Source: Nitrosomonas europaea (GTDB taxonomy: Bacteria > Pseudomonadota > Gammaproteobacteria > Burkholderiales > Nitrosomonadaceae). Taken from it: 32,000 nucleotides of DNA. The notes beneath the pieces were generated by a model, which searched no databases, was not told the origin of the DNA, and was given only the letters and a program-made list of their open reading frames with translations. Positions 6,946 to 31,650 of this stretch are shown here, one piece after another. Where the stretch lies: the NCBI RefSeq assembly GCF_900167395.1, contig NZ_FUWK01000016.1, positions 1 through 32,000 of the forward strand, read 5' to 3'. Numbering within the stretch: the stretch's first letter is position 1; every line of letters begins with the position of its first letter. The position numbers and the translations under genes are program-made.

Positions 6946-8073
6946 CTAGTAATGATAGTGTGCGCCGATACCGAGATATTCCACCTTTTCCCTGAAGAAC
7001 TGGCCGGTAGGGGAATATCCGTTGAAGTATTCAAGCAGAAATTGAAGTTTCCTGTTGAAGGCCTGAAAATTATCGAACTGAATACCGGCTCTGGCAGATA
7101 TATCAGCATTCCAGTTATTCTGTTCGTAATTCTTGATATCCACGGCAAAAACCGGCCGTACCAATGCAAACTCCATTTGCCACGGACTTCTGAACTCTAT
7201 ACCGTATTGCGCTGACCAGGGCTTGATCGCCGACGGTTCTTTGCGAAAAACCCCACCACCCCCGCCATAAACACGTATTCCATACGGGAATTCATAGGAA
7301 AGTCTGAGATCGGCGGCCTCATAACTAAGATTGATACGCTCTATATCAGTGAGTTTTCTCAACAGGAATTCATCGCCAAGATGAGAACTCTGATGATAAA
7401 TACGGGCAAAAGCGGAAGCATTACCTGCCCGTACGCTGGTATAGATTCCTCCGATAAAATCGGTATTGATGAGATCAGTTGAGGAAGCACCCAGGTTGAA
7501 ATCACTGAATATACCGGCCTGGAGCCCGACCTCCCACTGCACGATCGATTGCCCGATATTGGCACGGTAAAATGGTATCGTTTCACCGAAGCTGACAGAG
7601 CCATTATGATTACCGTCTACATTTCTTCCCACATAATTACGGTAGGCAGCCGAGAAATGATTCCAGCGTGGGTCAGCCAGTAATGGCTTGAATAAATGAC
7701 CTTCCGGCAGGGGGCCAGTTGCCAGCATCGTTGAGCGTGTTGCCAAAGCGCCTTTATCGACAATCGCCTCATCTGGCTCCGGAGAAGCAAGTGAAGGTTG
7801 CTGTGCGGTATATTCCACTATTTCCACTCTGGTAACACCGGGAATCTCCGAGAACAGCTGCGTAATCCTGGTACGGTCTTCTGCCGGCAATTTGTCAGCT
7901 GGCAGCGTAATATTGCCATTCCGCACGGTTAATGAAGGGAGATCGATCCCGAACTGAAATTTCAGAATGGCTGCAGCATAACCAGCGATATAGGAATCAT
8001 CTGATGCCGGTGTCGCAGCACTTACAGGGAAAGTACAGAATATTGCGGCTATGATAATTGACAGAAATCGCAC
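6946..8073 (-). CDS. Outer-membrane-type protein (DUF1207-like) with BON-like N-terminal segment
   Basis: The ORF is open to 8229, but that start is a TTG without a Shine-Dalgarno sequence. The in-frame GTG at 8073 is preceded by AAGGTGA and gives the signal peptide VRFLSIIIAAIFCTFPVSA. The C-terminal half has alternating amphipathic beta-strand character and ends in ...GIGAHYHY, an aromatic terminus as in beta-barrel outer-membrane proteins. The family name is from memory of the sequence style only. Confidence 0.5.
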   Translation of the reverse strand: MRFLSIIIAAIFCTFPVSAATPASDDSYIAGYAAAILKFQFGIDLPSLTVRNGNITLPADKLPAEDRTRITQLFSEIPGVTRVEIVEYTAQQPSLASPEPDEAIVDKGALATRSTMLATGPLPEGHLFKPLLADPRWNHFSAAYRNYVGRNVDGNHNGSVSFGETIPFYRANIGQSIVQWEVGLQAGIFSDFNLGASSTDLINTDFIGGIYTSVRAGNASAFARIYHQSSHLGDEFLLRKLTDIERINLSYEAADLRLSYEFPYGIRVYGGGGGVFRKEPSAIKPWSAQYGIEFRSPWQMEFALVRPVFAVDIKNYEQNNWNADISARAGIQFDNFQAFNRKLQFLLEYFNGYSPTGQFFREKVEYLGIGAHYHY

Positions 8074-8230
8074 AATATCACCTTGGCAGGAAGAATTTTT
8101 GATCCTGATAACAGGCAGGCGTAACGGGATATTCGGGTATCCCCTGCTCTCTGTTAAAACCGGATAAAAAATAACACTCTTCTTTTCCAGCCAGGTGTTT
8201 GAAAGACTGCCTGGCTGAAAAGTACACAAC

Positions 8231-9037
8231 TCAGCTTATTTCAGGAGCACCGGTCAGTTGATGCAGCCGGGCAACCGCTGCCGCATCCAGACCCAGCAGT
8301 TTTGCCAGCTCGCGAAGGTAGTTCTCTTCCTTTTCGGTATCGACATTGATCGCCAGCAATGAGGCACTGTAAACCTCGGCTGCAACGACCTGATTCGGCA
8401 CCTCGGCTACCAGCGCAGCCATATCCGCAGGACGACGTAATTCCTCGTCTACCAGTTGTCGTTCGGCCTCGGTAACACCATCCTCACCCACCTTGCCCAG
8501 AATACGCGCGTTCTCCTGTTCATCAATGATACCATCCGCCTTTGCGGCAGCAATCATCGCACGCACGATCAAACGCTGGGTATCCGGGTCATCAATTGCT
8601 TCCATGGCATATCGATCGATATCAGCTGCACTGGCTGAAGTATTGCCGGCAGCCAGGTGTCCTTTCAGCGCATTCAGTGCCAGAGAACCGAGGATTGCCA
8701 TAGCACTGCCGCCAAGTGCTCCTTTGCTTGCTTTGACACCCCCACTCAACAATGCTCCTGCGAGCGCACCAATGCCGGTCAGTTGACTTCCAGTCAGCTT
8801 ACCTGTTTGTTTGCTGCCAAAGAAACCGCGTATCAGATTGAGCAAACCACCGCTGGTCGATGCAGAGTCACGCCCGCTACCATTATCATTGTCATTCAGT
8901 AAATTTCCGAGAAACTGCTCCAGTTTGCCACCAGCCCCGTCCAGTTCCAGTGAACCGAGAGCCTGATCCAGGCGCGAACGACTTTGTCCTGAAATACCCT
9001 GTTGCAGAAACTGACCGATAATGTTTGCAAAACTCAT
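8231..9037 (-). CDS. TerB-fold / DUF533 (YebE-like) protein
   Basis: The start is taken at MSFANIIGQFLQQG (ATG at 9037, GGAG Shine-Dalgarno sequence 9 nt upstream). A Gly/Ala-rich central region is followed by the C-terminal TerB-like module LIVRAMIAAAKADGIIDEQENARIL...AAEVYSASLLAINVDTEKEENYLRELAKLLGL. Confidence 0.7.
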   Translation of the reverse strand: MSFANIIGQFLQQGISGQSRSRLDQALGSLELDGAGGKLEQFLGNLLNDNDNGSGRDSASTSGGLLNLIRGFFGSKQTGKLTGSQLTGIGALAGALLSGGVKASKGALGGSAMAILGSLALNALKGHLAAGNTSASAADIDRYAMEAIDDPDTQRLIVRAMIAAAKADGIIDEQENARILGKVGEDGVTEAERQLVDEELRRPADMAALVAEVPNQVVAAEVYSASLLAINVDTEKEENYLRELAKLLGLDAAAVARLHQLTGAPEIS

Positions 9038-9301
9038 AGTTATATACTCCTTGTGGTTGGCCCTACGTGTATGAAAACGATCAATTACACCGACGGCCAC
9101 CATTTAGTTTTGCCTGTACCACGATGATGGTCAGTCGACCTTCAACTGCTGTTACGATGGATGATAAATGAGTAAAAATGACTTCTGTTTCTATTTTCTT
9201 TTACCGGACGATACTTCAAAGCCAGTCTGATTGGCAAGAATTTTCTCTCTAAGCCAAAGCATCCGAAATCACCTTATGATCAGGCATTCGACAGGGTGCA
9301 A

Positions 9302-10516
9302 TTAATCAAATACTTCATCTCCTGTCGGTTCAAGGTGAGTGGTTTCATTCATCTCCTGACGGAATCGGGATAATTCATAATACATTCTAAAACGCGCCCG
9401 GTTGATATTACCCAACGGCCGGTGTTCAGGAAGGCAATGCCAGGGATTCATTTTCAGACGCTTGGCAAACTCGAACTGCGCATCCGAATCGAATTTCTGT
9501 CTGGGAATATGGATGGTAGCAGCAGGAATGAATGAAGAAAGCTTTTCCGGCCAGCGCACTGAGCTGTCCTCGATAGGCATCAAATGGGGATCAGTTTGTA
9601 CCTGGATCATGAGATCAAACTCGACATCTTTTTCATTGAGCGTCTTGATCATGTTCTCCCGTAAATAGTTGAACGGTGGTGTGCCAAAAGGCAAGCCAGG
9701 AATATGCCTTTCAACCTCTTTCGTTTTTGGCACAAATGAATACATCATTGCCTGGCCTTCACCCAGCAGATAAGGTGTACAGCTCCAGTAGCGCTGTCCC
9801 AGCGGATTGTACTGAGTTGCTGTCCACAGGCTCTGCATGAAAAAATCGAGCAAGTGAGAATCTTTCGGATTGAGAAAGTAATAAAGTGTCATATCCACCA
9901 GACTCCAGTATTGCAACTTGGCATTTTCCCGCGTGTTGGGCGTAACGAATGTCGCCCCTCCGCTGGTTGCAATGAAGTCTTGCGTCAATTTTTCTTCACT
10001 CATCAGTTTCTCGCCCGGCACCCCCATGATTTTCATTGCCATACTCATAAACCCGACATCATTAATATCAGCAGGCACATTCGGGCCCGGTCCGGAATAG
10101 CGGATATATGCCGGATAACTGCGCGGATTGGCAAAAATACCTTTGCGGCAATGCTCCGGCAGATCATCCCGGATAGTAATGGTGGCACGCACGATACCGT
10201 GTGTTTTGGTATTACCCCCTCGTTCATAACCTCCCGGTTTGAAGCGCCCGCGCATCTGATCCATCATGAGATCGATAATTTTGTTCAGGCTTTCTTCTTC
10301 GTCGGGATCAAATCTTTCTTCCGCCAGTTCAAGATCAGAATCCTTGTTCTTGCGTCGCCGATTAATCAGAAACTGGATCAATCTTGAGCCAGGTTCGCGA
10401 AAAAGATAATCCCACTGCGGTCGAAACCAGGGTTCCAATCGACGCTCGATGCGCAGCAACAAAATCAGGAAATTATGAATCGCTTTGAGTACCCGGTTTT
10501 TGATTGTCATGTTCAT
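9302..10516 (-). CDS. Catalase-related haem protein (mini-catalase / y4iL-like clade, the clade that contains allene oxide synthase- and hydroperoxide-lyase-type enzymes)
   Basis: 404-aa ORF. The distal-side motif GGYERGGNTKTHGIVRATITIRDDLPEHCRKGIFANPRSYPAYIRYSGPGP has the His in KTHG. The proximal-side motif is HRPLGNINRARFRMYYELSRFRQ (R-x-x-x-Y Tyr ligand pattern). The start ATG overlaps the DyP stop in an ATGA overlap at 10516-10513. Confidence 0.75.
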   Translation of the reverse strand: MNMTIKNRVLKAIHNFLILLLRIERRLEPWFRPQWDYLFREPGSRLIQFLINRRRKNKDSDLELAEERFDPDEEESLNKIIDLMMDQMRGRFKPGGYERGGNTKTHGIVRATITIRDDLPEHCRKGIFANPRSYPAYIRYSGPGPNVPADINDVGFMSMAMKIMGVPGEKLMSEEKLTQDFIATSGGATFVTPNTRENAKLQYWSLVDMTLYYFLNPKDSHLLDFFMQSLWTATQYNPLGQRYWSCTPYLLGEGQAMMYSFVPKTKEVERHIPGLPFGTPPFNYLRENMIKTLNEKDVEFDLMIQVQTDPHLMPIEDSSVRWPEKLSSFIPAATIHIPRQKFDSDAQFEFAKRLKMNPWHCLPEHRPLGNINRARFRMYYELSRFRQEMNETTHLEPTGDEVFD

Positions 10517-12039
10517 GATGAACCGCCGTTTCCGTTAGCAGGTAAAGCTGAAATGTATTTGAGTGCACGCAACCCGGGCATGAAAAAATATCCGCCACCC
10601 AGTACAGTCGTAAACTGCGGTAAATGACAGGTTTTTTGCATCGATCCGGATGAAGTGGGGCGATTGAAATGATCCGTGCTGTTACCGTTTATCATCGGTT
10701 CACGATTTCCCAGCAAGGGATCCGGCTCCTCCTGCAAGCCACCAAATTTGCCATTCACAATCCAGGCATTCTGGACAAATTCAAACTGTCGCCCTATGTT
10801 GGCTACCAGGCAGATGAACTGCAAACCACGTTCAGCAGCAGGTGCATCCGGTTTGACAGCGTCCCCCGGTGCAAGGACAGGGCCATAGCTGCGACCACGC
10901 CGCAACAAACGGTGAAAACGAGAAGAAGCAATGAGATCTTCCTCCGGTTTTTGTCCAAACCCCAGGATTTTAACCAACCGGTTTATCAGTGCGATCGCAC
11001 CGGTACCCGTTACAGCCGTCGGCAAATCGCCTGTCCGGGGATTGGCCCTGCGCACATGAGCACTGACTGGGCAATGATTCCCTTTCGGATCGAGGTCATA
11101 GGTAAAATGATTGCCATGATCCTTGGGCAAAATTCCCGGAATGTGCTCCGCAATCAAGGGCGTACCATTCCGTTCTCTGCCCACCATCGATGCGGCAAGC
11201 CGCTCCCGCTTCTCCGGGATGGAATCCGATACCTTGTCGAGAAATTGCCAGAAACCGGGAACATTCTGCTCCAGTTGCCGAAGTACCAGATACGTTCCAT
11301 TGCGGCCAAAATCTTTCCGTGCAGGATCATCTTTGGCATCCGGCAGATTCACGGCAAACCGGTCTTTTTGAAGGTCGATCAACGGTCGTGCAGTGTATTG
11401 CCCATATTCATTGGGATAACCAAGCACCATTTCGCCGGCAGCCAGTAAATTGGTGTAGCGGTCATTTGCATGTGAATCCGTATCATGCCGATCTGCCCAG
11501 TCAATCGCGGGCTGACTGATCCCATCCTCAAACCCGAAAGGATCAGTTCGCCCCATGTCCGAGGTGGGCAGATACTGCAGCAGCTGAAATGCCTGTGAGA
11601 AATACTCGCCTTCTACCGTTGCTTTCCAGGCATCAAGCCCCCCCTTTCTGGCATAAAGCAATAACAAGATATGCGGTACGTCTGCACCCTCCCCCCATTT
11701 CCAGTACTTCGGCGCATTGTGTCCAATATCACCGAGCCGACGAGAGCAGTTTTCATTTCTGGTCATGCCATGAACGAATTCATCGGAAAAACCATCAATA
11801 ATGGATTCATCAATGCCCAATGCACGCAAACCCTGCACGGAAAAAGCGATCTGCAGTGCCGTATCAGGCGGTGGATGAATTGCAATGGCACTGCTGACCG
11901 GCGCTGTGCTCAACCATTGTCTGGCGGCACTGGCATCCGCAATTTTCAGCAACATGAAGCAGGTATCAGCCAGCTTTCCGTATCCAAAACGCAGCAATCC
12001 CTGTACATCATCGAATTCAAAATTGCCGGATTCTTTCAT
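10513..12039 (-). CDS. Dye-decolorizing (DyP-type) haem peroxidase
   Basis: The N-terminus is FDDVQGLLRFGYG. The GxxDG motif is DPFGFEDGISQP. The proximal His region is PVSAHVRRANPR, followed by HRLLRRGRSYGP and ERGLQFICLVANIGRQFEFVQNAW. The start is taken at MKESGNF (ATG 12039), which has a GAGGGGG Shine-Dalgarno sequence directly after the upstream gene's TGA. The ORF is open to 12072. Confidence 0.85.
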   Translation of the reverse strand: MKESGNFEFDDVQGLLRFGYGKLADTCFMLLKIADASAARQWLSTAPVSSAIAIHPPPDTALQIAFSVQGLRALGIDESIIDGFSDEFVHGMTRNENCSRRLGDIGHNAPKYWKWGEGADVPHILLLLYARKGGLDAWKATVEGEYFSQAFQLLQYLPTSDMGRTDPFGFEDGISQPAIDWADRHDTDSHANDRYTNLLAAGEMVLGYPNEYGQYTARPLIDLQKDRFAVNLPDAKDDPARKDFGRNGTYLVLRQLEQNVPGFWQFLDKVSDSIPEKRERLAASMVGRERNGTPLIAEHIPGILPKDHGNHFTYDLDPKGNHCPVSAHVRRANPRTGDLPTAVTGTGAIALINRLVKILGFGQKPEEDLIASSRFHRLLRRGRSYGPVLAPGDAVKPDAPAAERGLQFICLVANIGRQFEFVQNAWIVNGKFGGLQEEPDPLLGNREPMINGNSTDHFNRPTSSGSMQKTCHLPQFTTVLGGGYFFMPGLRALKYISALPANGNGGSS

Positions 12040-12053
12040 GTATATACCCCCTC

Positions 12054-13358
12054 TCAGATCAGGCTGAGCCATTCACGGATTTCCGCATCATCCGACTGGC
12101 GAATTTCCACGCCTTGCCGAATACGGCTGTTGCGCACCAGATCAACGGCGGTCAGTCCCGGATAAGCCTTGTACCAGACCTCGGTAGGTATCTGATGCCG
12201 CCTTTGCGTGTATTTGAATGCGTGCTCACGCTGCGCGCCTTCCTTAATCATCCACCTTGTCGTCGGGTAGCCGACAGCATTGCTAAAGGTCAGGTTCAGC
12301 CCCCAGCCAACCTTGTTGATGAAATCATCCATATAGCTTTCGTGGCTGCCATCGTAATTACTGGCAAAGAAAACGCGATGGTTGTTATCCATGAATACCC
12401 AGCGGGCGAAATGGATCGTTTTGATGCGCGCAAGAAAGCCGTGATTGTAAACATGCCTGGCAAACCAGTCGGTCAGCAGGAGGATGAATTTAAAGGTCAA
12501 CAGGCGGAACAACCCTGGTTTTACATCCCCAAACACGCTGTATTGATTGCTGACATCCCAATCTTCCTGTTCGGAAAGCGCTTCGATATGTGAGTAGGCA
12601 GGCCGGATGAAGAGTTCAGGATCAGAGCGCTCCCGCTTTCTCAACCATAATGCAAAGAAGGGAGCAATCACCAATAGCAATGGAGAGAAAAGCAACAGGA
12701 CCAGCGGCACGCCGATTTTATGCAGCAGATTACGGGTTCTCCATTCACTCGGCGTTGGCTCCGGCGGGGAAAGCACAAGCCTGCCTTTATACTTTTCCAT
12801 TTCGACATGTGACAAAAGCTTTTGCCGTAGAGTATGAATATTTTCCCGCCCGACCTCTGCAACAATTTTCTGTAAACAGTCAGACAGGCTGTGATGTAGC
12901 GCTGCTTCTTCATGGATCTGCCTGACGGTTCGACCCACCCAGTTAACGTAATTGGCGCCGGGGCTGACATTACGCATCTTCATCCACTCCAGCAAATTCT
13001 GATTTCCCGTAGAGAAATCATCACAGTGGGAGAAGATTTTTGTCAGCCCCGATTCTGCACGTTCCACGAGCTCTGCCAGGAAAGTGTGCATATCCCCGTC
13101 GATGTCACCCAGGAAAGCAAGCATGGGCCGCCATGGCCGTGGTTTTACACCGAACTCTTTAATCTCTTGTAGCGTTTTTGCTTCTATGATCACAAACCGT
13201 GCAAAATGCAAGCGATCCAGTTTCCCGAATGGAATCAGGTCATTATCAGGATCAGCATGCCCGGGGATTGTATTCATCGAAGCGAGCAAGGTACGCAAAT
13301 CCTGCAGTTGCCCAACACGTACCGTCGCAGCAATCATGAAGGCAGATTGAGGTGTCAT
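12054..13358 (-). CDS. Hypothetical protein with one central TM helix and an internally duplicated HFAR[FW]V...DG module
   Basis: 434-aa ORF. The N-half has DRLHFARFVIIE...LAFLGDIDGDMHTFLAELV. The central hydrophobic helix is IGVPLVLLLFSPLLLVIAPFFALWL. The C-half has KTIHFARWVFMD...VFFASNYDGSHESYMDDFI. I do not recognise a named family. Its stop lies 12 nt before the DyP start. Confidence 0.6.
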   Translation of the reverse strand: MTPQSAFMIAATVRVGQLQDLRTLLASMNTIPGHADPDNDLIPFGKLDRLHFARFVIIEAKTLQEIKEFGVKPRPWRPMLAFLGDIDGDMHTFLAELVERAESGLTKIFSHCDDFSTGNQNLLEWMKMRNVSPGANYVNWVGRTVRQIHEEAALHHSLSDCLQKIVAEVGRENIHTLRQKLLSHVEMEKYKGRLVLSPPEPTPSEWRTRNLLHKIGVPLVLLLFSPLLLVIAPFFALWLRKRERSDPELFIRPAYSHIEALSEQEDWDVSNQYSVFGDVKPGLFRLLTFKFILLLTDWFARHVYNHGFLARIKTIHFARWVFMDNNHRVFFASNYDGSHESYMDDFINKVGWGLNLTFSNAVGYPTTRWMIKEGAQREHAFKYTQRRHQIPTEVWYKAYPGLTAVDLVRNSRIRQGVEIRQSDDAEIREWLSLI

Positions 13359-13391
13359 GGTCTTCTATCCCGAAAACAGTTGGACAGCGCG

Positions 13392-13847
13392 TTATTGGGT
13401 GTCGCTTTGCGTCAGGGCAAAATCCAGGACGCGCGTTTTGCCCCACCAGACTTTTCCAAGATAAACACCAGGCTCAACCTCGCGAATCTCATCGCGAATC
13501 ACTTTGGCAACGAATGAAGTTTTAGAGTAATCAATGACGATGGTGTCTTGCCCGTCGAGCCAACTCTTATCGCGATACACCTTTGCAACGATAAACGTCA
13601 AACCAAACGGCGTAATCTTGTTGACAAGGACACCCGCCTGACCGCCTGGACAAAATAAATCAAATACCTTGCCCTGCCAGGCAAAAAGGCGTGCAAAAGC
13701 AGCCACTGTTTTTGAAAAGAATGATCCCGCCAGAATTGCCGTGCCGCGTGTATCGCCTGCCGGAATATTTCCCGGCGTGGCATGACGATAGATTTCATCC
13801 AGTTCTTCACGTGATTTCCCCAACCAAGCTCTGACCGTATTATTCAT
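13392..13847 (-). CDS. Hypothetical 151-aa protein, first gene of the DyP/catalase-related operon
   Basis: The ORF has an AGGAG Shine-Dalgarno sequence 8 nt upstream of the ATG at 13847, and a 33-nt gap to the next gene. Its layout (G-rich N-part, ...AWQGKVFD..., then ...IVIDYSKTSFVAKVIRDEIREVEPGVYLGKVWW...) loosely recalls GXWXG/DUF4334-type small proteins. I cannot confirm that. Confidence 0.5.
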   Translation of the reverse strand: MNNTVRAWLGKSREELDEIYRHATPGNIPAGDTRGTAILAGSFFSKTVAAFARLFAWQGKVFDLFCPGGQAGVLVNKITPFGLTFIVAKVYRDKSWLDGQDTIVIDYSKTSFVAKVIRDEIREVEPGVYLGKVWWGKTRVLDFALTQSDTQ

Positions 13848-14230
13848 TTCAGTTACTCCTCATGGTTATACCAAAAACAAATAAACAGAATCGTCTGACA
13901 ACACGTGATCCGAAACAGGATGATCCAGGACAAGCACCTTACCTATTCAACAAGCTGAACCCCCCTCGCAGAAAAGAATCAATCTGTATCGAATTCAAAG
14001 ACCACACTCACAATAACTTTATTCCTGGTTTACCCAATATGCAATTGTTTGATCACCTCAAAACAGAAAAACAGGATTATGCTGAATAACTATTGGCTAT
14101 CTAATTTTCTCTAAAATTAATTCAAACATAGTAATACCCTCAGTAGAAAAAGGGATATATTATGAAAGCATACTGCAGTAATGGCTTCAAACTTTAGCTT
14201 GCCCTGATCAACATTTAACTGGAGATCATC

Positions 14231-16900
14231 ATGAAAACATGTAGAAATATCTTTTATTTCACCGGGATCAGCTTGGTTTTACTTCTTGCAGGATGTTCAG
14301 ATGATTTATCTCTGAAAATTGCAGCCGAATGTATCAAAGGTAATCACATCCAGTCCGGATCGGTTCTGGATGAAGCACAGTGTGTAAACAGATCTGCAGA
14401 GAGCTTTCCGGGAGCGGATGAAGATTATTTCAAGGATATGGATTATGGAATCAGCCAGACTCCTGATAAGGTAGTCGCTGCCCTTGAGCCCTTCGTGCCC
14501 GGCGTTTCACAGAATCCGGACGAGGCTGTCAAATCGATAGTCAGAGGCCGAAACAACTGGATCGTCTGGACGGGTGGCAACGACAAGTTCTGGGATTATA
14601 TGAGCGTGAAGAGCTTTGGCAGCTTCGATCTGCTGAAAGTGCTGTCGAATCATCCCAGGCTTGTGAAAAATCCGGGATACAGCCGCGACAACCGATGGCA
14701 CTGGTTTGGTCTGGTCAATGAACCGTGTTTCATAAAAAATACCGACGCGCAAGGCAAACTGGTCGGGCGTGAAGATCGTTTCGGCCTATATCTGGATGTA
14801 CGAGATCCGACCTGTCCTGCTGATCCGTTTGAAAATGAGGAAAAATATCCAGGCGTCAAAATTGGTGCGCGTGGCAAAACCGTGCCAGTGGGGTCTTATT
14901 ATGGTTATGCGACTGGTATTGTAGGTCTGCGCCTGTTTCCCAATCCCGATTTCAATGAAGCCGCAAAAAAACGCTGGGATGCCGAAAAATATTATTCTGA
15001 TCCGAATTACTACAATAATCCCAAACTGGTCAAACCGTACCGGGTGGGAATGGCTTGCAGTTTCTGTCACGTAGGACCCAACCCGACCAACCCGCCTGAA
15101 GATCCGGAAAATCCGCAGTGGGCCAATCTCAATTCCAATCCCGGGGCACAGTATTTCTGGTTCGACCGGGTATTCGCGTACGAGGCCGATAAAACCAGTT
15201 TCGCCTACCAGCATCTCCATACCAACCGGCCGGGTGCTTTGGATACCTCACTCATCTCCACCGACTACATCAACAATCCGCGTACCATGAACGCTGTTTA
15301 CAGCCTTCCTGCACGGATGCTGAATACCTTACGCTGGGGTGAAGAAAAATTGAACGGTGGCGAGCGGGATAACAAGCAGTTCAATCATTTCGACGAAATC
15401 CCTGCCGACAGCCCGCTCAGAGCCTTTTTCAAAGATCCGGATACGGTACTGACGCCGCGTGTGCTCAAAGATGGTGCGGATTCGGTCGGTGCACTGGGCG
15501 CATTGAATCGTGTTTTCATCAATATCGGTTTGTTCAGTGAAGAATGGCTACAGCACATCAATCCCCTGGTAGGAGGAAAGCCGTTTACACCTTTCCCGAT
15601 CAAAATAGCCGAACAGAATTCCAGCTACTGGCGGGCAACCGAGCAGCAGACGCTGGATGGCGCCTTGTTTTTTCTGGTTGCCACCCCTCCGGATCATTTG
15701 AAGGATGCTCCCGGGGGTAAACATTACCTGACCGATGATGAAGAAACTCTGGAACATGGTAAGAAGGTATTTGCCGAGCATTGTGCTGCTTGCCATTCGA
15801 GTAAATTACCGGACGAGGCAAACAAGTTTTTCCCTGATAAAGGGTGTGTCGGCCCTGATTACTTGAAGTGCTGGAATCAGTATTGGCACTGGACCAACTC
15901 ACCCGAATTCAAGGAGAAAATGACAAAGCTGGTCATGGAAGAAGATTTTCTCAAAGAGAATTTCCTGTCCACGGAGTTACGCATCCCGGTAACTCTGCTG
16001 GAAACCAATATTTGTGCGTCGATCGCGACCAATGCCATCCAGGGAGATACCTGGGACAATTTTTCTTCGACTTCCTACAAAAATTTGCCTTCGGTAGGAA
16101 AAGCACTGATCCATCATCCAGTTACACGCAAACCTGCAGATCACGTCATGCCAGACGGGGGACGTGGTTATATTCGTCCACCTTCCCTTTCGAGCATTTG
16201 GTCTACAGCACCATTTTTACTGAACAATACGGTCGGGAAATTTTATCCCTCGGGTTCAGTGGAAGATCGTATGAAATCTTTCGAGATCAGTATCGAGCAG
16301 CTGCTATGGCCCGAAAAACGCTACTGCGATCAGAAAGATCTGTACTACTACGGACAGGATAAAGAAGGAAAAGGCTCCTATGCCTATGATTCGGAAGCAG
16401 CAGGCAGTTGCGAAGGAAAAACCTATCTGACCCGATCCGGCAAAGAAGTACCGGGTATTATCGACCGGACGACAGAAAGGAGTGAGCTAAAAGTACCGAA
16501 AGGTTACCTGCCATGGTATGTCAGAATTCTCCCTATTGGTGATGGGTTGGAGCTTGGTCCATTCCCTGAAGGCATTCCTGTGAATCTGGTTTCCAATACC
16601 AATATGGAAATGAACTGGGGGCAGCGGCTTTCTCTTTCGTGGGATCTTGCAAGGGCTATCGGGTGGGATATCTTTGATTTGTGGAAAGCCCAGGAACATC
16701 CTGAAAGCATGACTGATGAAGAGCTGCGCAAAATATTGAGCGGGATAGTCGATCCTTTACTGGGCGTTAACAAATGTCCGGATTTTGTCGTTAACCGCGG
16801 GCATTATTTCGGCACAGACTACCTCCCGGCAGAAGAAGGCAGAACAGCGCTCGATGATAACGATAAACGTGCTTTGATCGAGTTTCTCAAGACCATGTAA
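14231..16900 (+). CDS. Large di-haem c-type cytochrome lipoprotein (unknown family)
   Basis: 889-aa ORF with a GGAG Shine-Dalgarno sequence 7 nt upstream. The lipoprotein signal is MKTCRNIFYFTGISLVLLLAGC (lipobox LAGC). There are two CxxCH haem-c motifs: CSFCH (15056-15070) and CAACH (15782-15796). Confidence 0.7.
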   Translation: MKTCRNIFYFTGISLVLLLAGCSDDLSLKIAAECIKGNHIQSGSVLDEAQCVNRSAESFPGADEDYFKDMDYGISQTPDKVVAALEPFVPGVSQNPDEAVKSIVRGRNNWIVWTGGNDKFWDYMSVKSFGSFDLLKVLSNHPRLVKNPGYSRDNRWHWFGLVNEPCFIKNTDAQGKLVGREDRFGLYLDVRDPTCPADPFENEEKYPGVKIGARGKTVPVGSYYGYATGIVGLRLFPNPDFNEAAKKRWDAEKYYSDPNYYNNPKLVKPYRVGMACSFCHVGPNPTNPPEDPENPQWANLNSNPGAQYFWFDRVFAYEADKTSFAYQHLHTNRPGALDTSLISTDYINNPRTMNAVYSLPARMLNTLRWGEEKLNGGERDNKQFNHFDEIPADSPLRAFFKDPDTVLTPRVLKDGADSVGALGALNRVFINIGLFSEEWLQHINPLVGGKPFTPFPIKIAEQNSSYWRATEQQTLDGALFFLVATPPDHLKDAPGGKHYLTDDEETLEHGKKVFAEHCAACHSSKLPDEANKFFPDKGCVGPDYLKCWNQYWHWTNSPEFKEKMTKLVMEEDFLKENFLSTELRIPVTLLETNICASIATNAIQGDTWDNFSSTSYKNLPSVGKALIHHPVTRKPADHVMPDGGRGYIRPPSLSSIWSTAPFLLNNTVGKFYPSGSVEDRMKSFEISIEQLLWPEKRYCDQKDLYYYGQDKEGKGSYAYDSEAAGSCEGKTYLTRSGKEVPGIIDRTTERSELKVPKGYLPWYVRILPIGDGLELGPFPEGIPVNLVSNTNMEMNWGQRLSLSWDLARAIGWDIFDLWKAQEHPESMTDEELRKILSGIVDPLLGVNKCPDFVVNRGHYFGTDYLPAEEGRTALDDNDKRALIEFLKTM

Positions 16901-17002
16901 TTCTGTAACGGCGGGTAATCCAACATGCAGCCGGAATATCCGCCGTATTTCTCAGTTTACAGATCACGACGCTCTACCCGTTTTCTGCTCCAGGAGATAT
17001 CT

Positions 17003-18949
17003 ATGATTGAGCCTGCCTCCCCGGAAAATAATCAGATCGATAGTGATAGTGACGAAAAGTTTGACTATGTCGTCATCGGCTCCGGTGCAGGAGGTGGGCC
17101 AGTCGCCTGCAAACTGGCTCTGGCAGGATTTCGTGTGCTGTTGCTGGAAGCCGGAGGAGATGATGAGCCCTGTGATTACAGGGTTCCGGCATTTCATGCA
17201 CGTGCTTCGGAAAATGAAGCGCTTCGCTGGGATTACTTTGTTCATCATTATGGCGACAAAGTCCGGCAGGAATATGATTGCAAGTTCAGCAAAGAAAAGA
17301 ATGGTGTGCTTTACCCTCGCTCGGGCACATTAGGCGGATGTACCGCACATAATGCCATGGTTCTGATGTATCCCCACAATAGTGACTGGGATTACATTGC
17401 CAAACTGATGAATGATCCCAGTTGGCATAGCAGAAATATGCACAAATACTTCCGCCGTCTGGAACGCTGCGAATATGTTCCAAGATGGAAAATCTGGAGT
17501 CGCCATGGATTTGACGGCTGGTTGCCAACCAATCCAGCTAACCGCTGGATGCTGTTGAAGGACAAAGTCCTGACAAAACTGACGATCGCCGCAGTGAAAG
17601 AATCCCGGCGCATGATGCATCCGCTCAAACGTTTTTTTCTGGGGATTCTGAAATTTATCATTCGCTTCGATCCCAATGACTGGCGTTTGATTCGCAGGAT
17701 TCCTGAAGGACTGTGCAAAATTCCGATGACGATCCAACACGGCAAGCGGGCAGGTACCAGAGAGTACATCCTGCGGGTTCGGGAACAATGCCCTGACAAA
17801 TTGATAGTAAGAACCCACTCATTGGTCCAGCGGATCCTGCTCGACGAACATAACAGAGCTTACGGCGTGGTGTATCGTGTGGGCGCTCATCAATATCGCG
17901 CTGACCCCCGGCACGAAGAATCAGTTGTCTCCGAAGCCAAAACAGTTTGTGCAAAACGTGAAATCATCATTGCTGCGGGTGCTTTCAATACGCCTCAACT
18001 GCTCATGCTATCCGGGATTGGTCCGCGGGAAGAACTGGAAAAACATGAGATCGAGGTAAAAGTAGAACTGCCAGGTGTCGGAAAAAATTTACAGGATCGC
18101 TATGAAATCGGCGTGGTAACGAGACTCAAAGAAAACATTCCCCTGATCAAAGGAATGAAATTACGCCCGCCAGAACCTGGAGAAGAGCCAGATCCGCAAT
18201 ACGCGCTGTGGCTCCAGGAAAAAGGACCTTACACCACGAACGGTGCAACGATTGCGCTCATCAAGCGCTCTTCTGCCAAACATCCAGATGACGATCCGGA
18301 TCTGTTGATTTTTGGATTGCTCGGTAATTTCAGCGGCTACTATCCAGGCTATGCTCGTGATATTACCCGAGATAACAGTCGCTATCCTAATGCGCTATGT
18401 AATAAGAATGGCGACCACTCTGATACCTGCAAAGAAAATATCTTTACCTGGGCCATTCTCAAGGCACACGCAAGCAACACGGGATATGTCACCTTACGAT
18501 CCAGCGATCCGCGCGATGTGCCTGACATCAACTTCAACTACTTTCCTGAAAATGAGGATGACAGCAGTAGCAAGAAGGATCTGGATTCAGTAGTAGAGGG
18601 CGTGGAAACCGTTCGCAATATTCTCGAAGATTGCGGGGATCTGGTTGATGAAGAAATTCTACCGGGTGCAAACGTCAGCAGCCGAGATGAAATCCGTCAG
18701 TTCATCAAGGATCAGGCCTGGGGGCACCATGCTTCCTGCACCTGCAAAATGGGACCGCGAAGCGATGAAATGGCCGTCGTCGACAGCCGGTTCCGTGTTT
18801 ACGGAACCACTGGCCTGCGGATTGTCGATGCTTCAATCTTTCCCAGAATACCGGGTTTTTTTATTGTATCCGCCATCTACATGATCAGTGAAAAGGCCGG
18901 TGAAGTCATTATTGAAGATGTAAGGAGTAAACTTGGAAACCACAGCTGA
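17003..18949 (+). CDS. GMC-family FAD-dependent oxidoreductase (choline dehydrogenase / alcohol oxidase superfamily)
   Basis: The Rossmann motif is FDYVVIGSGAGGGPVACKLALAGFRVLLLEAGG. The C-terminal GMC signature region is AWGHHASCTCKMGP...VVDSRFRVYGTTGLRIVDASIFP. The start is taken at the ATG at 17003 (AGGAGA Shine-Dalgarno sequence 6 nt upstream). The ORF is open to 16925. Confidence 0.85.
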   Translation: MIEPASPENNQIDSDSDEKFDYVVIGSGAGGGPVACKLALAGFRVLLLEAGGDDEPCDYRVPAFHARASENEALRWDYFVHHYGDKVRQEYDCKFSKEKNGVLYPRSGTLGGCTAHNAMVLMYPHNSDWDYIAKLMNDPSWHSRNMHKYFRRLERCEYVPRWKIWSRHGFDGWLPTNPANRWMLLKDKVLTKLTIAAVKESRRMMHPLKRFFLGILKFIIRFDPNDWRLIRRIPEGLCKIPMTIQHGKRAGTREYILRVREQCPDKLIVRTHSLVQRILLDEHNRAYGVVYRVGAHQYRADPRHEESVVSEAKTVCAKREIIIAAGAFNTPQLLMLSGIGPREELEKHEIEVKVELPGVGKNLQDRYEIGVVTRLKENIPLIKGMKLRPPEPGEEPDPQYALWLQEKGPYTTNGATIALIKRSSAKHPDDDPDLLIFGLLGNFSGYYPGYARDITRDNSRYPNALCNKNGDHSDTCKENIFTWAILKAHASNTGYVTLRSSDPRDVPDINFNYFPENEDDSSSKKDLDSVVEGVETVRNILEDCGDLVDEEILPGANVSSRDEIRQFIKDQAWGHHASCTCKMGPRSDEMAVVDSRFRVYGTTGLRIVDASIFPRIPGFFIVSAIYMISEKAGEVIIEDVRSKLGNHS

Positions 18950-19036: not shown

Positions 19037-21898
19037 TTACCGAGTAAATACTTCATCCCCCTCGGCACCGCGCCGGGGTTTCCATTGAGTGCTGTAGTAT
19101 TCTCCGCGATCTCGCGCCCAGGGATCGAACAGGTTGACCACACCCTGAAGCTCATCCGCCAGCTCGGGCAACGTTCTCAACAGGACTCGCTTCAGCGGAG
19201 AAACCGGTTGCCGGTGACCATTGTACGTCCCCTCTTCCATTATTTCCGGGCCCGGCCCATTGTGCATTACCCACTCCACTCCCAGAATGCTATAGAACTC
19301 CGGGCGAAAACTCGAAGTAAAAAACCGGTCGCTGAAGAGTCTGCGTGAAGCATTGAGAACGAACACGACGAACTGGGTTTCTGAAATGGCAAAACCGTGC
19401 GGCCGTTTGAATTCCGCCAGCCAGCCGACGACCGTATCGACATCCTCGATATTGTCTACAAGACTGCCGTCGGGATGCCCCAGACAATCGTTAATGGGTG
19501 ATTTGTCGTCATTCAGCTGGGCGTTTGTGATCAGTCTGGATGCATCGCACCGGTGCTGTCCGTATACCTCACGTAATGTCCGCACGAGCTGCTCCTGTTC
19601 GCGACGAACAGACGAATCTCCGGGCACGCGCGGATCGATGAAATCATCGAAGCTGGTCAATTGCTTCAACCCGTACTGCCGACGAAACTCGTTATAGCGC
19701 GGAATGCCCCGCTCCCGGTCGCGAATGAGATCGAGTGCAGCAATGTCGATTTGCCGGGTGGATGATTGCAGATGAGGGATCTTCAGGTTTTGCAAAAACC
19801 GCGGATGATTCTGGAGCGTCAACGCACCTGCCCGCTGACGACCCATGCTGAGCGCCCAGTTTGCCAGGCCTTTCTGCCGCATCGCCCCGGTGGCTTTACC
19901 GCGAAAGGTATCGATGACAGGTATTTTTTGCCGAATGATATTCGGATTGTTATGCCATTCACGGTATTCGATCAAATCCGGCAACAAAGGATGCAGTCGA
20001 TATACCGTGACGAACTCTTCAGGAAAACTGAAAGGAGAACCAAAATGGTTGACTCCGCCATTGATATCTTCGTTGCGGGTGAGTGTCCAGATATCCTTTC
20101 TGTTGCGATCGACCAGGGAATAGAGCGGCGCGCCTTCATAGCGATGATTGCCTAACCCGAAAATACCTGCTCCACCAGCGAAAGCGGCATGAAGACTGTT
20201 GCTGATACCTTCGGTATCGTCCAGCTGGCGGATAATTTCTCTCAGTACCTCGGATACCGCCGCATGTTCGTGAAATAACCCATGCCAGTTGGCGTTCATC
20301 CCCCGATACAGCGGCTCGTTGTACAGCAGCTGCGTCGTCCACTCAAGGGTATGGATCTTGGCGATCTCGGCGGCAATCACCAGTCGGGCTACATTGAATA
20401 ATTCGCCTGCCGTGACATCCCGGTAACGAATGATCATCTCAGGGTGCGCCGGGTTCCTCAAGCCGCTGTCAGCATCAGGTGTTTTGGCTGCCTGCTTGCG
20501 GAATTCCTCAACAAAAGCATTGTGCTCTCTGGCAAAGACATTATGAAAAAAACTCAATCCAATGGACCAGTTGTCCGGAAAAGCGGCTGCTTCCTGACCT
20601 GACCATGCCGGATCGATCGGATCATCCACTTCAAAGGTCGGCAAGTATCCGGATTCATCGCCTCTATCCACGCTTTCTCTTACATGAATCAGCGCTAATT
20701 TGGCAGCATCCTCGGGATCCCGTTTCACCCGCTGACTGGAGCGCTCGTCATAGCCATAAAGCTGTGAGGCATCCCACCAGGCTGTCACATGATTACGTGT
20801 CGTTTTCGGCGCGCGTGTGCGATAAAGGTGGCCGTCGTGCATGAACGATGCGGGCGGTGTGTCATCATCGATCGGTGCAACATGGATTCTGTCACCCGGC
20901 CGGCAGCCCAGCTGGCGGGCTTCCTTCGCTGCCAAAGGCTGTTCGATGTTGTCAATTCGCTGAGTTATACAACCCACCGTCATCCACGCTGACTGGTCAG
21001 ATTCCTCTTCCACATGAGAAAACCAGTCATGGGTCATGAACTGAATCCAGAAAGCTGCCAGCACATTCAGGGCCGGTGCTTTTTTGTAATCACATGCGAA
21101 TTTCTCAAGATCGCCAGATAACTCGTCGTCGTTCCGGCATTTATCAGGCTGTGACTGCGTGCGCGTAAACAATTTCCGGCTGATGACCTGCGGATCGGGT
21201 TTCAGCAAACCCAATCGATCTCCATGACGATTCCTGGCCATCTCATCGAGGCCCAGATCAGGAAAGGTCGTATCGAACTGGACATTGCGCGCAAAGATCT
21301 GATGAGTCGAGCCCATCAACGGATTGTAGATATCGTTACAGATACCGGTAACAGTACGAAAACGAATCAATTCGCCACTGCAAACCTGATGTTCCTGATT
21401 ATGCTCAACGTCCTTGTAACGAGGATGAGTTGGCGGTAACTGCATTTCCGGCCAGACTTGTAAAACAGGGCCTGCCCTGCCATCACGGCCTGTCACATAA
21501 GCCTGGTAAGTACCGCTATTGTCAAAGAGATTGAATTTGATCAGCTCGATCCGCTGCAACTCCAGTTCATAAAGCGCACTGTTGATGCCACGTTCATTCG
21601 GACCGAAAAACGAGCTGGCCAATGGCGAAGAAGATAATGACAAGCTGTCACCTGTTCCCCAGAAATTTGGCCAATCCAGCCAGGGATTCCGGTTGAGCGC
21701 CACAGCATGATCTCCACCAAGACAATGCGCCCGTCTCCCGGTGACCTTACCGAGAAACCGCTGTTCTCTCGTCTTGGCAACGTGCTGAATGTCACCTTGC
21801 ATGAGCACAGAGAGACAGGATATTTCAGGTTCCAAAGCATCACATCCGCTCAAAAGCAGTAATCCTGTCAGTACGATAACTATCGGAAAGTGGCTCAT
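19037..21898 (-). CDS. Haem peroxidase of the peroxidase-cyclooxygenase superfamily, alpha-dioxygenase/PIOX-like, lipoprotein
   Basis: 953-aa ORF. The lipoprotein signal is MSHFPIVIVLTGLLLLSGC. It carries FRTVTGICNDIYNPLMGS (animal-haem-peroxidase type motif), the distal motif AAFWIQFMTHDWFSH, then FAREHNAFVEEF and IAKIHTLEWTTQLL. The Tyr/proximal-His motif EEFVTVYRLHPLLPD corresponds to plant alpha-DOX ...YRMHSLLPD and COX ...YHWHPLL. Confidence 0.85.
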   Translation of the reverse strand: MSHFPIVIVLTGLLLLSGCDALEPEISCLSVLMQGDIQHVAKTREQRFLGKVTGRRAHCLGGDHAVALNRNPWLDWPNFWGTGDSLSLSSSPLASSFFGPNERGINSALYELELQRIELIKFNLFDNSGTYQAYVTGRDGRAGPVLQVWPEMQLPPTHPRYKDVEHNQEHQVCSGELIRFRTVTGICNDIYNPLMGSTHQIFARNVQFDTTFPDLGLDEMARNRHGDRLGLLKPDPQVISRKLFTRTQSQPDKCRNDDELSGDLEKFACDYKKAPALNVLAAFWIQFMTHDWFSHVEEESDQSAWMTVGCITQRIDNIEQPLAAKEARQLGCRPGDRIHVAPIDDDTPPASFMHDGHLYRTRAPKTTRNHVTAWWDASQLYGYDERSSQRVKRDPEDAAKLALIHVRESVDRGDESGYLPTFEVDDPIDPAWSGQEAAAFPDNWSIGLSFFHNVFAREHNAFVEEFRKQAAKTPDADSGLRNPAHPEMIIRYRDVTAGELFNVARLVIAAEIAKIHTLEWTTQLLYNEPLYRGMNANWHGLFHEHAAVSEVLREIIRQLDDTEGISNSLHAAFAGGAGIFGLGNHRYEGAPLYSLVDRNRKDIWTLTRNEDINGGVNHFGSPFSFPEEFVTVYRLHPLLPDLIEYREWHNNPNIIRQKIPVIDTFRGKATGAMRQKGLANWALSMGRQRAGALTLQNHPRFLQNLKIPHLQSSTRQIDIAALDLIRDRERGIPRYNEFRRQYGLKQLTSFDDFIDPRVPGDSSVRREQEQLVRTLREVYGQHRCDASRLITNAQLNDDKSPINDCLGHPDGSLVDNIEDVDTVVGWLAEFKRPHGFAISETQFVVFVLNASRRLFSDRFFTSSFRPEFYSILGVEWVMHNGPGPEIMEEGTYNGHRQPVSPLKRVLLRTLPELADELQGVVNLFDPWARDRGEYYSTQWKPRRGAEGDEVFTR

Positions 21899-23621: not shown

Positions 23622-23686
23622 GTGACGCTCCTTTAAAAGGATAAAATTCATCCAGTTCCCGGATTACTTCACTGCGACATCCTCAT

Positions 23687-26961: not shown

Positions 26962-26993
26962 GAGAATTTCCTCCATGTTTTTATCTGCAGGAA

Positions 26994-28746: not shown

Positions 28747-29454
28747 TCACTGACCCTGCCCGGCAATACATATCCCCGCACAATCTGCTCCCCCGTGTTC
28801 GGGATCGCAGGTATCACCCGGATCATCAACACATGCCAGGCCATCCGGACACCTGATTCCTGCAATTCCTCCGCAAGCCTGGGGTTCTGCTGTTTTACAT
28901 TCACCCTCATGATCGATAGAAACACCTGCCGCAGCCGCTCCACAGGCATTACCATAAGTTTTTCCGTCACAACCGCAAACCGGATTGAACTCTCTCGTGC
29001 AGATTGTTGGCCTGGTTTTACAGACACCTTGCGCATCAGCAACTTTGCACTGGCCGATGCCCAAATCACAGTACTGCTCGGCAGGACAGGCCAATCCCTG
29101 GATCGTGCCGCAAACTTGTGGTTGTAATTGAGGTTGTGGGGGGTTGCCTTCCTCACAACCCGCTACGACCAGAGAAACAGAAAGCACGATCAACCAGGTG
29201 ATCAATGCATTCAGATATCGTGGCAATTCCTTCCTGGTCTTGCGCGTGATCGATGGTGGCGACAGACCCCGGCCAGAACTGAACGCCCCATTGCCGGCAC
29301 CGAAATCGGAAGAAAAGTAAAGTTGTGGATTAAAACCAGAACAGCCTGATCCGGGTAAACCCAGGGCAGAAGTAAATTGCGTGGGGGACCGCTTTCCTGC
29401 CAAAACACACGCATTTCGAGCTTGAGTTCCGGCCTGATTTTTCTGCTGTTTCAT
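28747..29454 (-). CDS. Membrane-anchored or lipoprotein Cys-rich protein: Kazal-type inhibitor domain plus the shared C-terminal 6-Cys module
   Basis: The ATG at 29454 has a strong AAGGAGG Shine-Dalgarno sequence. The hydrophobic segment LNALITWLIVLSVSLVVAGC ends in a lipobox-like VAGC. An in-frame TTG at 29226 after AGGAAGGAA would give a classical lipoprotein precursor. The Kazal signature is CTREFNPVCGCDGKTYGNACGAAAAGVSIDHEGEC. The C-terminus is CGGIAGIRCPDGLACVDDPGDTCDPEHGGADCAGIC. Confidence 0.65.
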   Translation of the reverse strand: MKQQKNQAGTQARNACVLAGKRSPTQFTSALGLPGSGCSGFNPQLYFSSDFGAGNGAFSSGRGLSPPSITRKTRKELPRYLNALITWLIVLSVSLVVAGCEEGNPPQPQLQPQVCGTIQGLACPAEQYCDLGIGQCKVADAQGVCKTRPTICTREFNPVCGCDGKTYGNACGAAAAGVSIDHEGECKTAEPQACGGIAGIRCPDGLACVDDPGDTCDPEHGGADCAGICIAGQGQ

Positions 29455-31331: not shown

Positions 31332-31650
31332 GGGTTTCTCCACTCTACGCAAGTGCCCCTGAAGCCTTGATGCGGCACTCGCTTGGATTGGGTCCCCGCA
31401 GGGAAGACAATTACCCGGGACGGCCGGGCAATAAAAAGCAACATCGACAACCCGGGTTGCCGCAATCGCCTGATACATGGAATCAATTCCACAAAGCTCG
31501 GAAAGTATCCGAAAAGGCATCTTTCCTGAGAAAGGACGGGAAGGGTAAATTATTTTTTGTCTTGACTCAAATTTTTCTGCACTATTTTTCCTGTCAGACC
31601 GATATCATACAGCCTGGTTTTTATCGAGTTGATATCTCCTCTCCTCCCTC

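Follow-up and report, generated by a model that had tools for sequence, protein, structure and literature searches.

A conserved operon joining a DyP-type peroxidase, a catalase-related haem protein and two uncharacterised families in Nitrosomonas europaea

Results

Organisation of the four genes

The first 32,000 nucleotides (nt) of contig NZ_FUWK01000016.1 of Nitrosomonas europaea (the whole of this stretch is referred to below as the window) contain four closely spaced genes, called here A, B, C and D in the order of their reading. They encode two uncharacterised proteins (A and B), a DyP-type haem peroxidase (gene C, DyP) and a catalase-related haem protein (D), respectively (Table 1). The original prediction, made from the letters of this DNA, had described four minus-strand genes in this order, with the sizes of A and B, and the coordinates of the open reading frames bear it out. 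The 33-nt spacing between A and B and the ATGA overlap of DyP and D, which had also been predicted, were both confirmed in the sequence. At the junction of B with DyP the sequence reads TGA-gagggggtatatac-ATG. The GAGGGGG motif indeed follows the stop codon directly, whereas the spacer between TGA and ATG (GAGGGGGTATATAC) is 14 nt long and not 12 nt, as had been given originally.

The four proteins A to D are identical to CAD85146 to CAD85143 of N. europaea ATCC 19718, and their public names ('hypothetical protein', 'Dyp-type peroxidase', 'catalase family protein') are all automatic. The start of DyP differs between the databases. The GenBank entry CAD85144 has 508 amino acids (aa) and begins with the ATG at position 12039, located after a strong Shine-Dalgarno sequence. 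The RefSeq entry WP_234989024 has 519 aa and begins with an in-frame ATG at position 12072, which creates a 19-nt overlap with B. Judging by the N-termini of the orthologues, the start at 12039 (508 aa) is to be favoured.

In the 383-bp divergent region upstream of A, the leader at positions 13848-13925, including GTGTTGTCAG and the ribosome-binding region GAGGAGTAACT, is kept in an alignment of four Nitrosomonas loci and the remainder is variable among them. No convincing sigma-70 promoter or operator was detected upstream of A, where just a weak promoter-like match was noticed. The sites found in the promoter and terminator scans were no more numerous than in shuffled controls and did not define the ends of the operon. 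The Rfam scan of the window revealed no RNA family.

Conservation of the four-gene unit

An alignment of diverse B-family members was used to scan one genome per species, and at least 559 stretches encoding a relative of B were identified. The locus statistics given below concern the best 80 of these at least 559 matches, with 48-95% identity to B and 10-kb flanks, and describe this subfamily only. The neighbours in the 80 loci were scored by tblastn with the window proteins, A being counted at an identity of at least 40%.

The DyP orthologue was located immediately downstream of B in all 71 evaluable loci, D was found in 65 out of 66, and A preceded B in 70 out of 78. Most loci without a close A carried more distant A-like genes encoding proteins of about 300 aa. 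The gene order A-B-C-D was observed in 49 of the 80 loci; the variants comprised A-D-B-C in Verrucomicrobia and Acidobacteria and an inverted D in Rokubacteria and some others. The 80 loci span at least eight phyla or classes, and their hosts belong to Nitrosomonas/Nitrosospira, Methylococcales, Desulfobulbales, Chromatiales, Sedimenticola and Nitrospira as well as to Verrucomicrobia, Acidobacteria, Rokubacteria/Methylomirabilota, Geminicoccaceae, Paracoccaceae and others. Because the same families adjoin in nearly all of these loci and in so many lineages, the four genes are not neighbours by chance, and the conserved neighbourhood on which the original prediction depended was confirmed.

The junctions are conserved as well. 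Genes C and D overlapped in 40 of 43 loci, mainly with a spacing of -4 (ATGA), the gap between B and C had a median of 12 nt, the two genes overlapping in 16 of 76 loci, and the median gap between A and B was 27 nt across loci. The comparison of pairwise-distance matrices for 37 loci, made with no species-tree control, gave r = 0.95 for B and C and 0.82-0.88 for the other pairs. Copies from beta-, gamma- and deltaproteobacteria share 65-80% identity, which points to a transfer of the whole block.

The blastp analysis of the B-family representatives revealed proteins in which neighbouring genes are fused: A with B in P0371 (579 aa) and P0399 (567 aa), and B with DyP in P0396 (924 aa), P0434, P0469, P0488 (949 aa) and P0485. 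The order of domains in the fusion proteins is the same as the order of genes. Such fusions are classical evidence that A, B and DyP are associated physically or functionally. The known B–DyP fusions come from the metagenome-derived representative set, and none was present among the 80 genome loci. The A, B, DyP and D genes form one conserved, co-inherited operon. The tight coupling and partnership proposed originally are backed by the conserved overlaps, the fusions and the correlated divergence, which is strongest for B and C.

As a separate observation, one locus (L052:11311-14052) showed an apparent in-frame read-through, no stop codon being present between the aligned DyP and D parts, which may be due either to a natural DyP–D fusion or to an assembly error.

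The B–DyP pair as the core

The analysis was extended to B relatives of 30-34% identity. In every informative case the DyP gene was placed directly downstream of B, overlapping it or only a few bases off, and D was absent from these contexts. In one of the distant cases (L082) A was located upstream, and in two others the position where A would be was occupied by a translationally coupled P450 gene. The presence of P450 in place of A suggests that B and DyP combine as a cassette with haem oxygenases of different kinds. Some of the distant pairs had no other haem enzymes nearby. The invariant core down to 30% identity is the B–DyP pair rather than the four-gene set. The four-gene unit of the original prediction is conserved in close relatives, and it does not stand as an invariant core, since B–DyP persists without D.

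The two P450–B–DyP arrangements were found at L083:6833-10765 and in P0432, with a B protein about 31% identical to that of the window. The identification of this P450 as a fatty-acid peroxygenase was considered and dropped, as it looks like an ordinary natural-product-type P450.

The DyP-type peroxidase

A phmmer search against PDB indicated DyP of D. radiodurans (DrDyP, 8re3, E = 5e-40) as the closest solved relative of the N. europaea protein. Fungal and bacterial class C/D DyPs followed with E-values of 1e-27 to 1e-12, the matches covering residues 64-499. This similarity to solved DyPs confirmed the identity assigned to the protein originally. DrDyP is a class C/V enzyme with H324, D189 and R348 (PMC10820274). 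The catalytic residues of the N. europaea DyP, distal Asp172 (FGFEDG), proximal His328 (SAHVRRANPR) and distal Arg380, align to those of DrDyP and are invariant in 22 orthologues.

The scores obtained with the curated models were 22.8 for DyP_N (cut-off 27.5), 20.4 for Dyp_perox_C (cut-off 20) and 68.6 for TIGR01413 (cut-off 100.5). With the Pfam and NCBIfam thresholds missed or barely reached, the protein represents a divergent subfamily. Its N-terminus, MKESGNFEFDD, contains no Tat or Sec signal.

Proteins A and B

The search for A homologues yielded 1892 proteins, none of them named. The A protein has no signal peptide, and no match was found for it in Pfam, NCBIfam, PDB or PADLOC, also when the family profile was used. 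A kinship with GXWXG/DUF4334-like proteins, suspected from a motif resemblance, gained no support from Pfam, and hhalign revealed no relationship of A with B or with the di-haem cytochrome.

The A-like proteins of about 300 aa are 25-29% identical to A and were found at L068:2761-3354, L072:7064-7993 and L034:6762-7658 and in L076, L058 and L070. Their genes lie behind a gene for a distantly related di-haem cytochrome c (26-28% identity) and ahead of one for a second cytochrome-c-containing protein of 650-750 aa, after which come B-DyP-D. This arrangement was observed in Nitrospira and in some of the proteobacteria.

The B family comprises 2530 clusters at 50% identity. No Pfam or NCBIfam match was obtained for B, no ABM or SchA/CurD family was recognised by sequence, and the comparison of the B profile with PDB sequences gave noise only. 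The AlphaFold2 model of B (pLDDT 90.3, pTM 0.89) consists of two packed ferredoxin-like alpha+beta halves and a helical insert of about 100 aa. The best Foldseek match in PDB was the ABM/SchA-like protein WhiE-ORFI (9lmn, E = 4e-6, TM 0.39-0.46), and further matches included a putative monooxygenase (3mcs) and single ABM domains (TMt 0.5-0.6). The possibility that B is a degenerate DyP paralogue was unsupported, as no relationship between B and DyP was detected by hhalign.

Residues 215-239 are the sole strongly hydrophobic stretch of B, with a Kyte-Doolittle maximum of 2.7 over 19 residues. The segment contains three prolines, is flanked by basic residues at both ends and is modelled within the insert as a helix-kink-helix (204-223 and 225-245). 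It is conserved in the B family, where its uncharged stretch has a median length of 26 residues, mostly includes two or three prolines and has basic residues adjacent. In the light of the model this segment is probably a re-entrant or monotopic anchor and possibly a single transmembrane helix. The former, placed on the cytoplasmic face, is suggested by the packing of the two domains of B as one unit.

The predicted fold of B and the P450 genes beside the distant pairs raise the question of whether the operon serves to tailor, by oxidation, a hydrophobic molecule of the aromatic or quinone type, such as a pigment, a polyketide-like lipid or a quinone. In such a pathway, B would serve as a cofactor-free oxygenase or cyclase of the ABM type, and the aromatic product would be oxidised by DyP. 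WhiE-ORFI belongs to a spore-pigment polyketide cluster, the remaining best structural matches of B are ABM monooxygenases and cyclases, the P450s coupled translationally to the distant B–DyP pairs are of the natural-product type, and a tyrosinase gene is located 12 kb away in the window. Moreover, DyPs are best known for the oxidation of anthraquinones. The structural match is, however, moderate and has no sequence counterpart, the 80 loci have no conserved gene for a polyketide synthase, a nonribosomal peptide synthetase or another scaffold-forming enzyme beside the module, and the conserved partners are of the fatty-acid dioxygenase and phospholipase type. A tailoring function of this kind is thus considered unlikely.

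IsdG-type haem oxygenases also have the ABM fold, and the DyPs EfeB and YfeX were proposed to be deferrochelatases. The operon could then be imagined to handle haem or iron, with a deferrochelatase-like DyP and an IsdG-like ABM protein supplying, repairing or degrading haem. One cluster member is automatically named 'deferrochelatase/peroxidase EfeB', and the neighbourhood of the module in the window is unusually rich in haem proteins. Still, the match of the N. europaea DyP to TIGR01412 (EfeB) reached only E = 3e-4 and 19.8 bits against a cut-off of 428, and no sequence relation between B and IsdG-type proteins could be detected. Neither efeU/efeO nor a Tat signal nor haem-transport genes were found in the window, and no further haem enzyme is encoded beside some of the distant B–DyP pairs, all of which makes haem handling very improbable.

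Protein D and its paralogue D'

Single-sequence searches of Pfam, NCBIfam and PDB with D gave nothing, and no match to the Pfam Catalase model was obtained even at E = 10. A shallow D profile (76-100% identity) likewise found nothing in PDB. When the profile included a 30%-identical paralogue, designated D', it matched coral allene oxide synthase (cAOS; 1u5u at 2e-9 and 3dy5) and MAP_2744c (3e4w, 9e-6), with true catalases ranking below both at 1e-3 or weaker. The Pfam Catalase model matches 13 of 30 D-family members, window D not being among them. The AlphaFold model of D obtained with the shallow profile was of low confidence (pLDDT 45), and its top 50 Foldseek matches were all of the catalase fold, including 1u5u. 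At its N-terminus, D has a helical extension of about 95 aa, which D' and cAOS do not have.

The proximal motif Arg375-x3-Tyr379-x6-Arg386, assigned by motif and not from a reliable structure, is present in 57 of 57 D and 28 of 28 D' proteins. The spacing R-x3-Y-x6-R is taken here to be the catalase motif of the proximal Tyr haem ligand. A candidate distal pair was located in K-T105-H106-G, with T105 present in all 57 orthologues and H106 in 50 of them; the other seven have Gln (six) or Tyr (one) at position 106, a replacement that rules out catalase activity as an obligatory function. D also differs from true catalases in having Thr, not Val, before the candidate distal His, and the distal Asn of true catalases could not be located in D with confidence. 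A Thr-His pair is a hallmark of catalase relatives reacting with fatty-acid hydroperoxides, according to a passage of PMC10813956 that refers to its reference 158.

By its profile and motifs, D is classified as a catalase-superfamily protein of the allene-oxide-synthase/MAP_2744c type. The catalase relationship predicted originally was confirmed by the broader family profile and the fold search, and the assignment to a clade acting on hydroperoxides gained support from the ranking of cAOS and MAP_2744c above true catalases and from the Thr-His pair.

The paralogue D' has about 315-350 aa and shares about 30% identity with D. It is encoded between the alpha-dioxygenase-like gene and A in approximately 28 gamma- and deltaproteobacterial loci, e.g., L011:7229-8176, L013:8555-9508 and L047:8471-9520. 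The distal His is replaced in D' by Ile, Val or Leu, and the protein often carries a signal peptide or lipobox. No D' gene is present in the N. europaea window.

These features of D bear on the simplest explanation of the operon as a general peroxide defence, in which DyP and D would scavenge cytoplasmic H2O2 and small organic peroxides and A and B would have a stabilising or regulatory role. Both enzymes come from peroxide-handling superfamilies, D is called 'catalase family protein' by NCBI, and many of the hosts are aerobic with a strongly oxidising metabolism. Yet the family profile of D puts non-catalase relatives first, window D fails the Pfam Catalase model, and the candidate distal His is replaced in 7 of 57 orthologues as well as in D'. 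Furthermore, B has a probable dedicated membrane anchor, and a plain scavenger would need no persistent link to fatty-acid dioxygenase-type enzymes and phospholipases. Peroxide defence as the main function of the operon therefore seems improbable.

Neighbouring genes

Upstream of the module, two alternative sets of conserved partners were distinguished: an alpha-dioxygenase-like lipoprotein, or a di-haem cytochrome c together with a GMC-family oxidoreductase. N. europaea carries both of them (Table 1).

The closest solved relatives of the alpha-dioxygenase-like protein are plant fatty-acid alpha-dioxygenases (4kvj and 4hhr at 3e-54), and its VYRLH motif (Tyr633, His636) is present in 29 of 29 sequences. 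The gene is located upstream of the module in about 36 loci, and the exported bacterial lipoprotein that it encodes appears to be uncharacterised so far.

The 889-aa cytochrome has a weak RoxA-like C-terminal match and matches a di-haem peroxidase model below the threshold, and its counterparts in other loci have 800-900 aa. The PDB relatives of the GMC oxidoreductase are choline and alcohol oxidases and fatty-acid photodecarboxylase, and its gene co-occurs with the module in about 30 loci. The cytochrome–GMC pair is divergent from A in the window and co-directional in most loci. In about 25 loci it lies directly upstream of A in the same direction, so the conserved unit may be one of six genes.

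Further into the window, genes for a lipoxygenase, a haem dioxygenase with a YRWH motif and a tyrosinase stand in a row, all of them eukaryote-like oxidative enzymes. Among the 80 loci, the lipoxygenase accompanies the module in Nitrosomonadaceae only. Downstream of D, a gene for a patatin-like phospholipase follows directly in eight loci of Nitrosomonas relatives (e.g., L003:14269-16074, L004-L006, L010), and a gene for a Tle1-like (DUF2235) phospholipase follows in six loci of Methylococcales and other gammaproteobacteria (e.g., L011:12837-14405, L013). The DUF533/TerB and DUF1207 genes found after D in the window are common only to the window and its closest relative, L001. The PADLOC models of anti-phage defence systems gave no match for A, B, C or D.

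Table 1. Positions of the operon, its junctions and other genes in the 32,000-nt window of N. europaea
Feature	Position	Strand	Description
Gene A	13392..13847	minus	151 aa; GAGGAG ribosome-binding site upstream; uncharacterised family
Gene B	12054..13358	minus	434 aa; predicted membrane-anchored protein with two ferredoxin-like (ABM-type) alpha+beta-barrel halves
Hydrophobic segment of B	12642..12716	minus	residues 215-239; IGVPLVLLLFSPLLLVIAPFFALWL
B–DyP junction	12040..12053	minus	14 nt; GAGGGGG Shine-Dalgarno sequence right behind the TGA stop of B
Gene C (DyP)	10513..12039	minus	508 aa; class C/V DyP-type haem peroxidase
DyP–D overlap	10513..10516	minus	ATGA start/stop overlap, read directly from the sequence
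Gene D	9302..10516	minus	404 aa; catalase-related haem protein
Divergent intergenic region	13848..14230	.	383 bp between A and the di-haem cytochrome c gene; Nitrosomonas-conserved leader upstream of A
Di-haem cytochrome c lipoprotein	14231..16900	plus	889 aa; lipobox LLAGC; CSFCH at 276, CAACH at 518
GMC-family FAD oxidoreductase	16925..18949	plus	674 aa; Pfam GMC_oxred_N and GMC_oxred_C
Alpha-dioxygenase-like haem lipoprotein	19037..21898	minus	953 aa; Pfam An_peroxidase; lipobox LLSGC, Asp at +2
Lipoxygenase	21954-23651	minus	
Haem dioxygenase-type protein	23687-25288	minus	533 aa; YRWH motif, Tyr319, His322
Tyrosinase with PPC domains	25459-26976	minus	
DUF533/TerB gene	8231-9103		just past D
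DUF1207 gene	6946-8229		just past D
YhgA-like transposase	452-1474	minus	Transposase_31
Protein with Kazal protease-inhibitor and SpvB-like segments	28747-29454	minus	235 aa
Protein with a weak radical-SAM match	29973-31520	minus	515 aa

Discussion

Proposed function of the operon

The operon may well encode a membrane-associated set of haem enzymes for lipid-derived hydroperoxides, an interpretation held here with middling confidence. B would tether DyP to the inner membrane on its cytoplasmic side and present a lipophilic substrate or reductant to the enzyme, A being a putative small accessory subunit of B. D, presumably made in step with DyP by means of the ATGA overlap, would transform organic hydroperoxides, i.e., those of fatty acids, instead of dismutating H2O2. 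The hydroperoxides would come from the exported alpha-dioxygenase-like enzymes and in Nitrosomonas also from the lipoxygenase, and the fatty acids used by these dioxygenases might be released by the neighbouring phospholipases. The assignment of fatty-acid or lipid hydroperoxides as substrates follows from the genomic context, that is, from the alpha-dioxygenase-like enzymes, D', the phospholipases and the lipoxygenase. Such a lipid-hydroperoxide function is plausible, and we infer it, along with the membrane topology, complex formation, substrates and pathway order of the module, from the comparisons described above, which themselves show the gene structure, its conservation, the fusion proteins, the folds and the catalytic residues. 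Peroxide defence, aromatic tailoring and haem handling are each less likely.

Several observations weigh against this interpretation. The dioxygenase, the di-haem cytochrome and many D' proteins have signal peptides or lipoboxes, and neither is present in A, DyP or D. With export signals present only on the partners, the producer and the consumer of the hydroperoxides would be placed on opposite sides of the inner membrane. Most of the host bacteria are not known to make polyunsaturated fatty acids. The roles of residues in D rest on motif alignment, as the model of this protein is poor (pLDDT 45), and the argument on topology would be a different one if the segment of B were a true transmembrane helix. 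Finally, distant B–DyP pairs adjoin natural-product-type P450s and have no D, so the core pair need not be lipid-specific and may act on hydrophobic substrates in general.

The module had originally been regarded as the hydroperoxide-processing arm of the neighbouring dioxygenases. Among these dioxygenases, the alpha-dioxygenase-like enzyme is one whose gene recurs beside the module. The lipoxygenase did not prove to be a conserved partner, and a simple downstream arm in one compartment is doubtful in view of the export signals.

A broader view may be put forward tentatively, although it is rather doubtful in its full form. B and DyP would represent an unrecognised, widespread DyP system, in which a cytoplasmic class C/V DyP works only when complexed with the monotopic ABM-fold protein B and with A, and B couples it to a reductant or substrate residing in the membrane, for instance quinol or a lipid hydroperoxide. 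In the four-gene form of this system, D and DyP would convert or repair the hydroperoxides made by the exported alpha-dioxygenase-like enzymes.

The physiological substrates and partners of bacterial DyPs, especially those of class C, are largely unknown in the field. The data presented here indicate that a large DyP subfamily has an obligate, membrane-anchored and sometimes fused partner family with thousands of members and no annotation, and the operon makes the physiological role of this subfamily experimentally approachable. In one widespread subfamily the B–DyP pair is locked to D of the allene-oxide-synthase type, and linked to alpha-dioxygenase-like enzymes and phospholipases, which offers a concrete candidate, open to experiment, for a pathway of oxylipins or lipid peroxides in bacteria. 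Two families of 'hypothetical proteins' are given working roles. The hosts, among them ammonia oxidisers, methanotrophs, Nitrospira, NC10 and Desulfobulbales, are environmentally important. If the proposal is true, DyPs gain a defined physiological role, and a bacterial oxylipin system has spread horizontally among nitrifiers, methanotrophs and sulfur-cycle bacteria.

Comparison with known systems

In the literature search, whose coverage was incomplete, neither the module nor a membrane partner for DyPs of class C nor the present N. europaea genes were found to be described, in agreement with the novelty claimed in the original prediction. The known kinds to which the module is related are DyP operons and oxylipin clusters combining dioxygenases with catalase-related proteins.

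The N. europaea DyP has the same catalytic residues as the characterised class C/V enzymes (DrDyP, 8re2/8re3; Amycolatopsis DyP2, 4g2c; Anabaena AnaPX, 5c2i), which are its best sequence matches, and, like them, no export signal. Unlike them, it follows a membrane-anchored ABM-like partner, to which it is sometimes fused elsewhere. Additional residues are inserted after its proximal His and ahead of its distal Arg, the two aligned stretches being separated by residues 340-367.

Dedicated operon partners are a feature that the module shares with the EfeUOB iron uptake system, in which DyP is of class A and Tat-exported, and with the encapsulin–DyP cargo systems of class B. In contrast to these, no EfeU, EfeO, Tat signal or encapsulin gene was found in the window or the loci, and the partners are two unrelated uncharacterised families and a catalase-related protein.

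B resembles ABM/SchA-CurD-like proteins (WhiE-ORFI, 9lmn; FN1347, 3mcs; ActVA-Orf6-type monooxygenases) in being a predicted tandem ferredoxin-like barrel. It differs from them in the helical insert of about 100 aa carrying the putative anchor, the obligate coupling to DyP and the lack of sequence similarity.

The top-ranked relatives of D are cAOS and hydroperoxide lyase (Plexaura cAOS–LOX, 1u5u and 3dy5; Acaryochloris marina) and mycobacterial MAP_2744c (3e4w). D shares with cAOS-type proteins the Tyr proximal motif, the Thr-His pair and the company of a fatty-acid dioxygenase gene. Unlike Plexaura cAOS–LOX, it is not fused to a lipoxygenase and has the N-terminal extension of about 95 aa. 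It further differs from cAOS-type proteins in its translational coupling to DyP and in a candidate distal His that is not universal.

The module also recalls the plant alpha-dioxygenase pathway and the fungal LDS/AOS dioxygenase–P450 fusions, in all of which a Tyr-x-x-His dioxygenase adjoins a haem enzyme of the hydroperoxide-transforming type. The bacterial dioxygenase is, unlike those of plants and fungi, an exported lipoprotein of about 950-1000 aa, and the candidates for handling the hydroperoxide are a catalase-related protein and DyP, not a P450 as in the fungal LDS/AOS fusions. In the gamma- and deltaproteobacterial loci, the gene for the catalase-related D' directly follows that for the dioxygenase.

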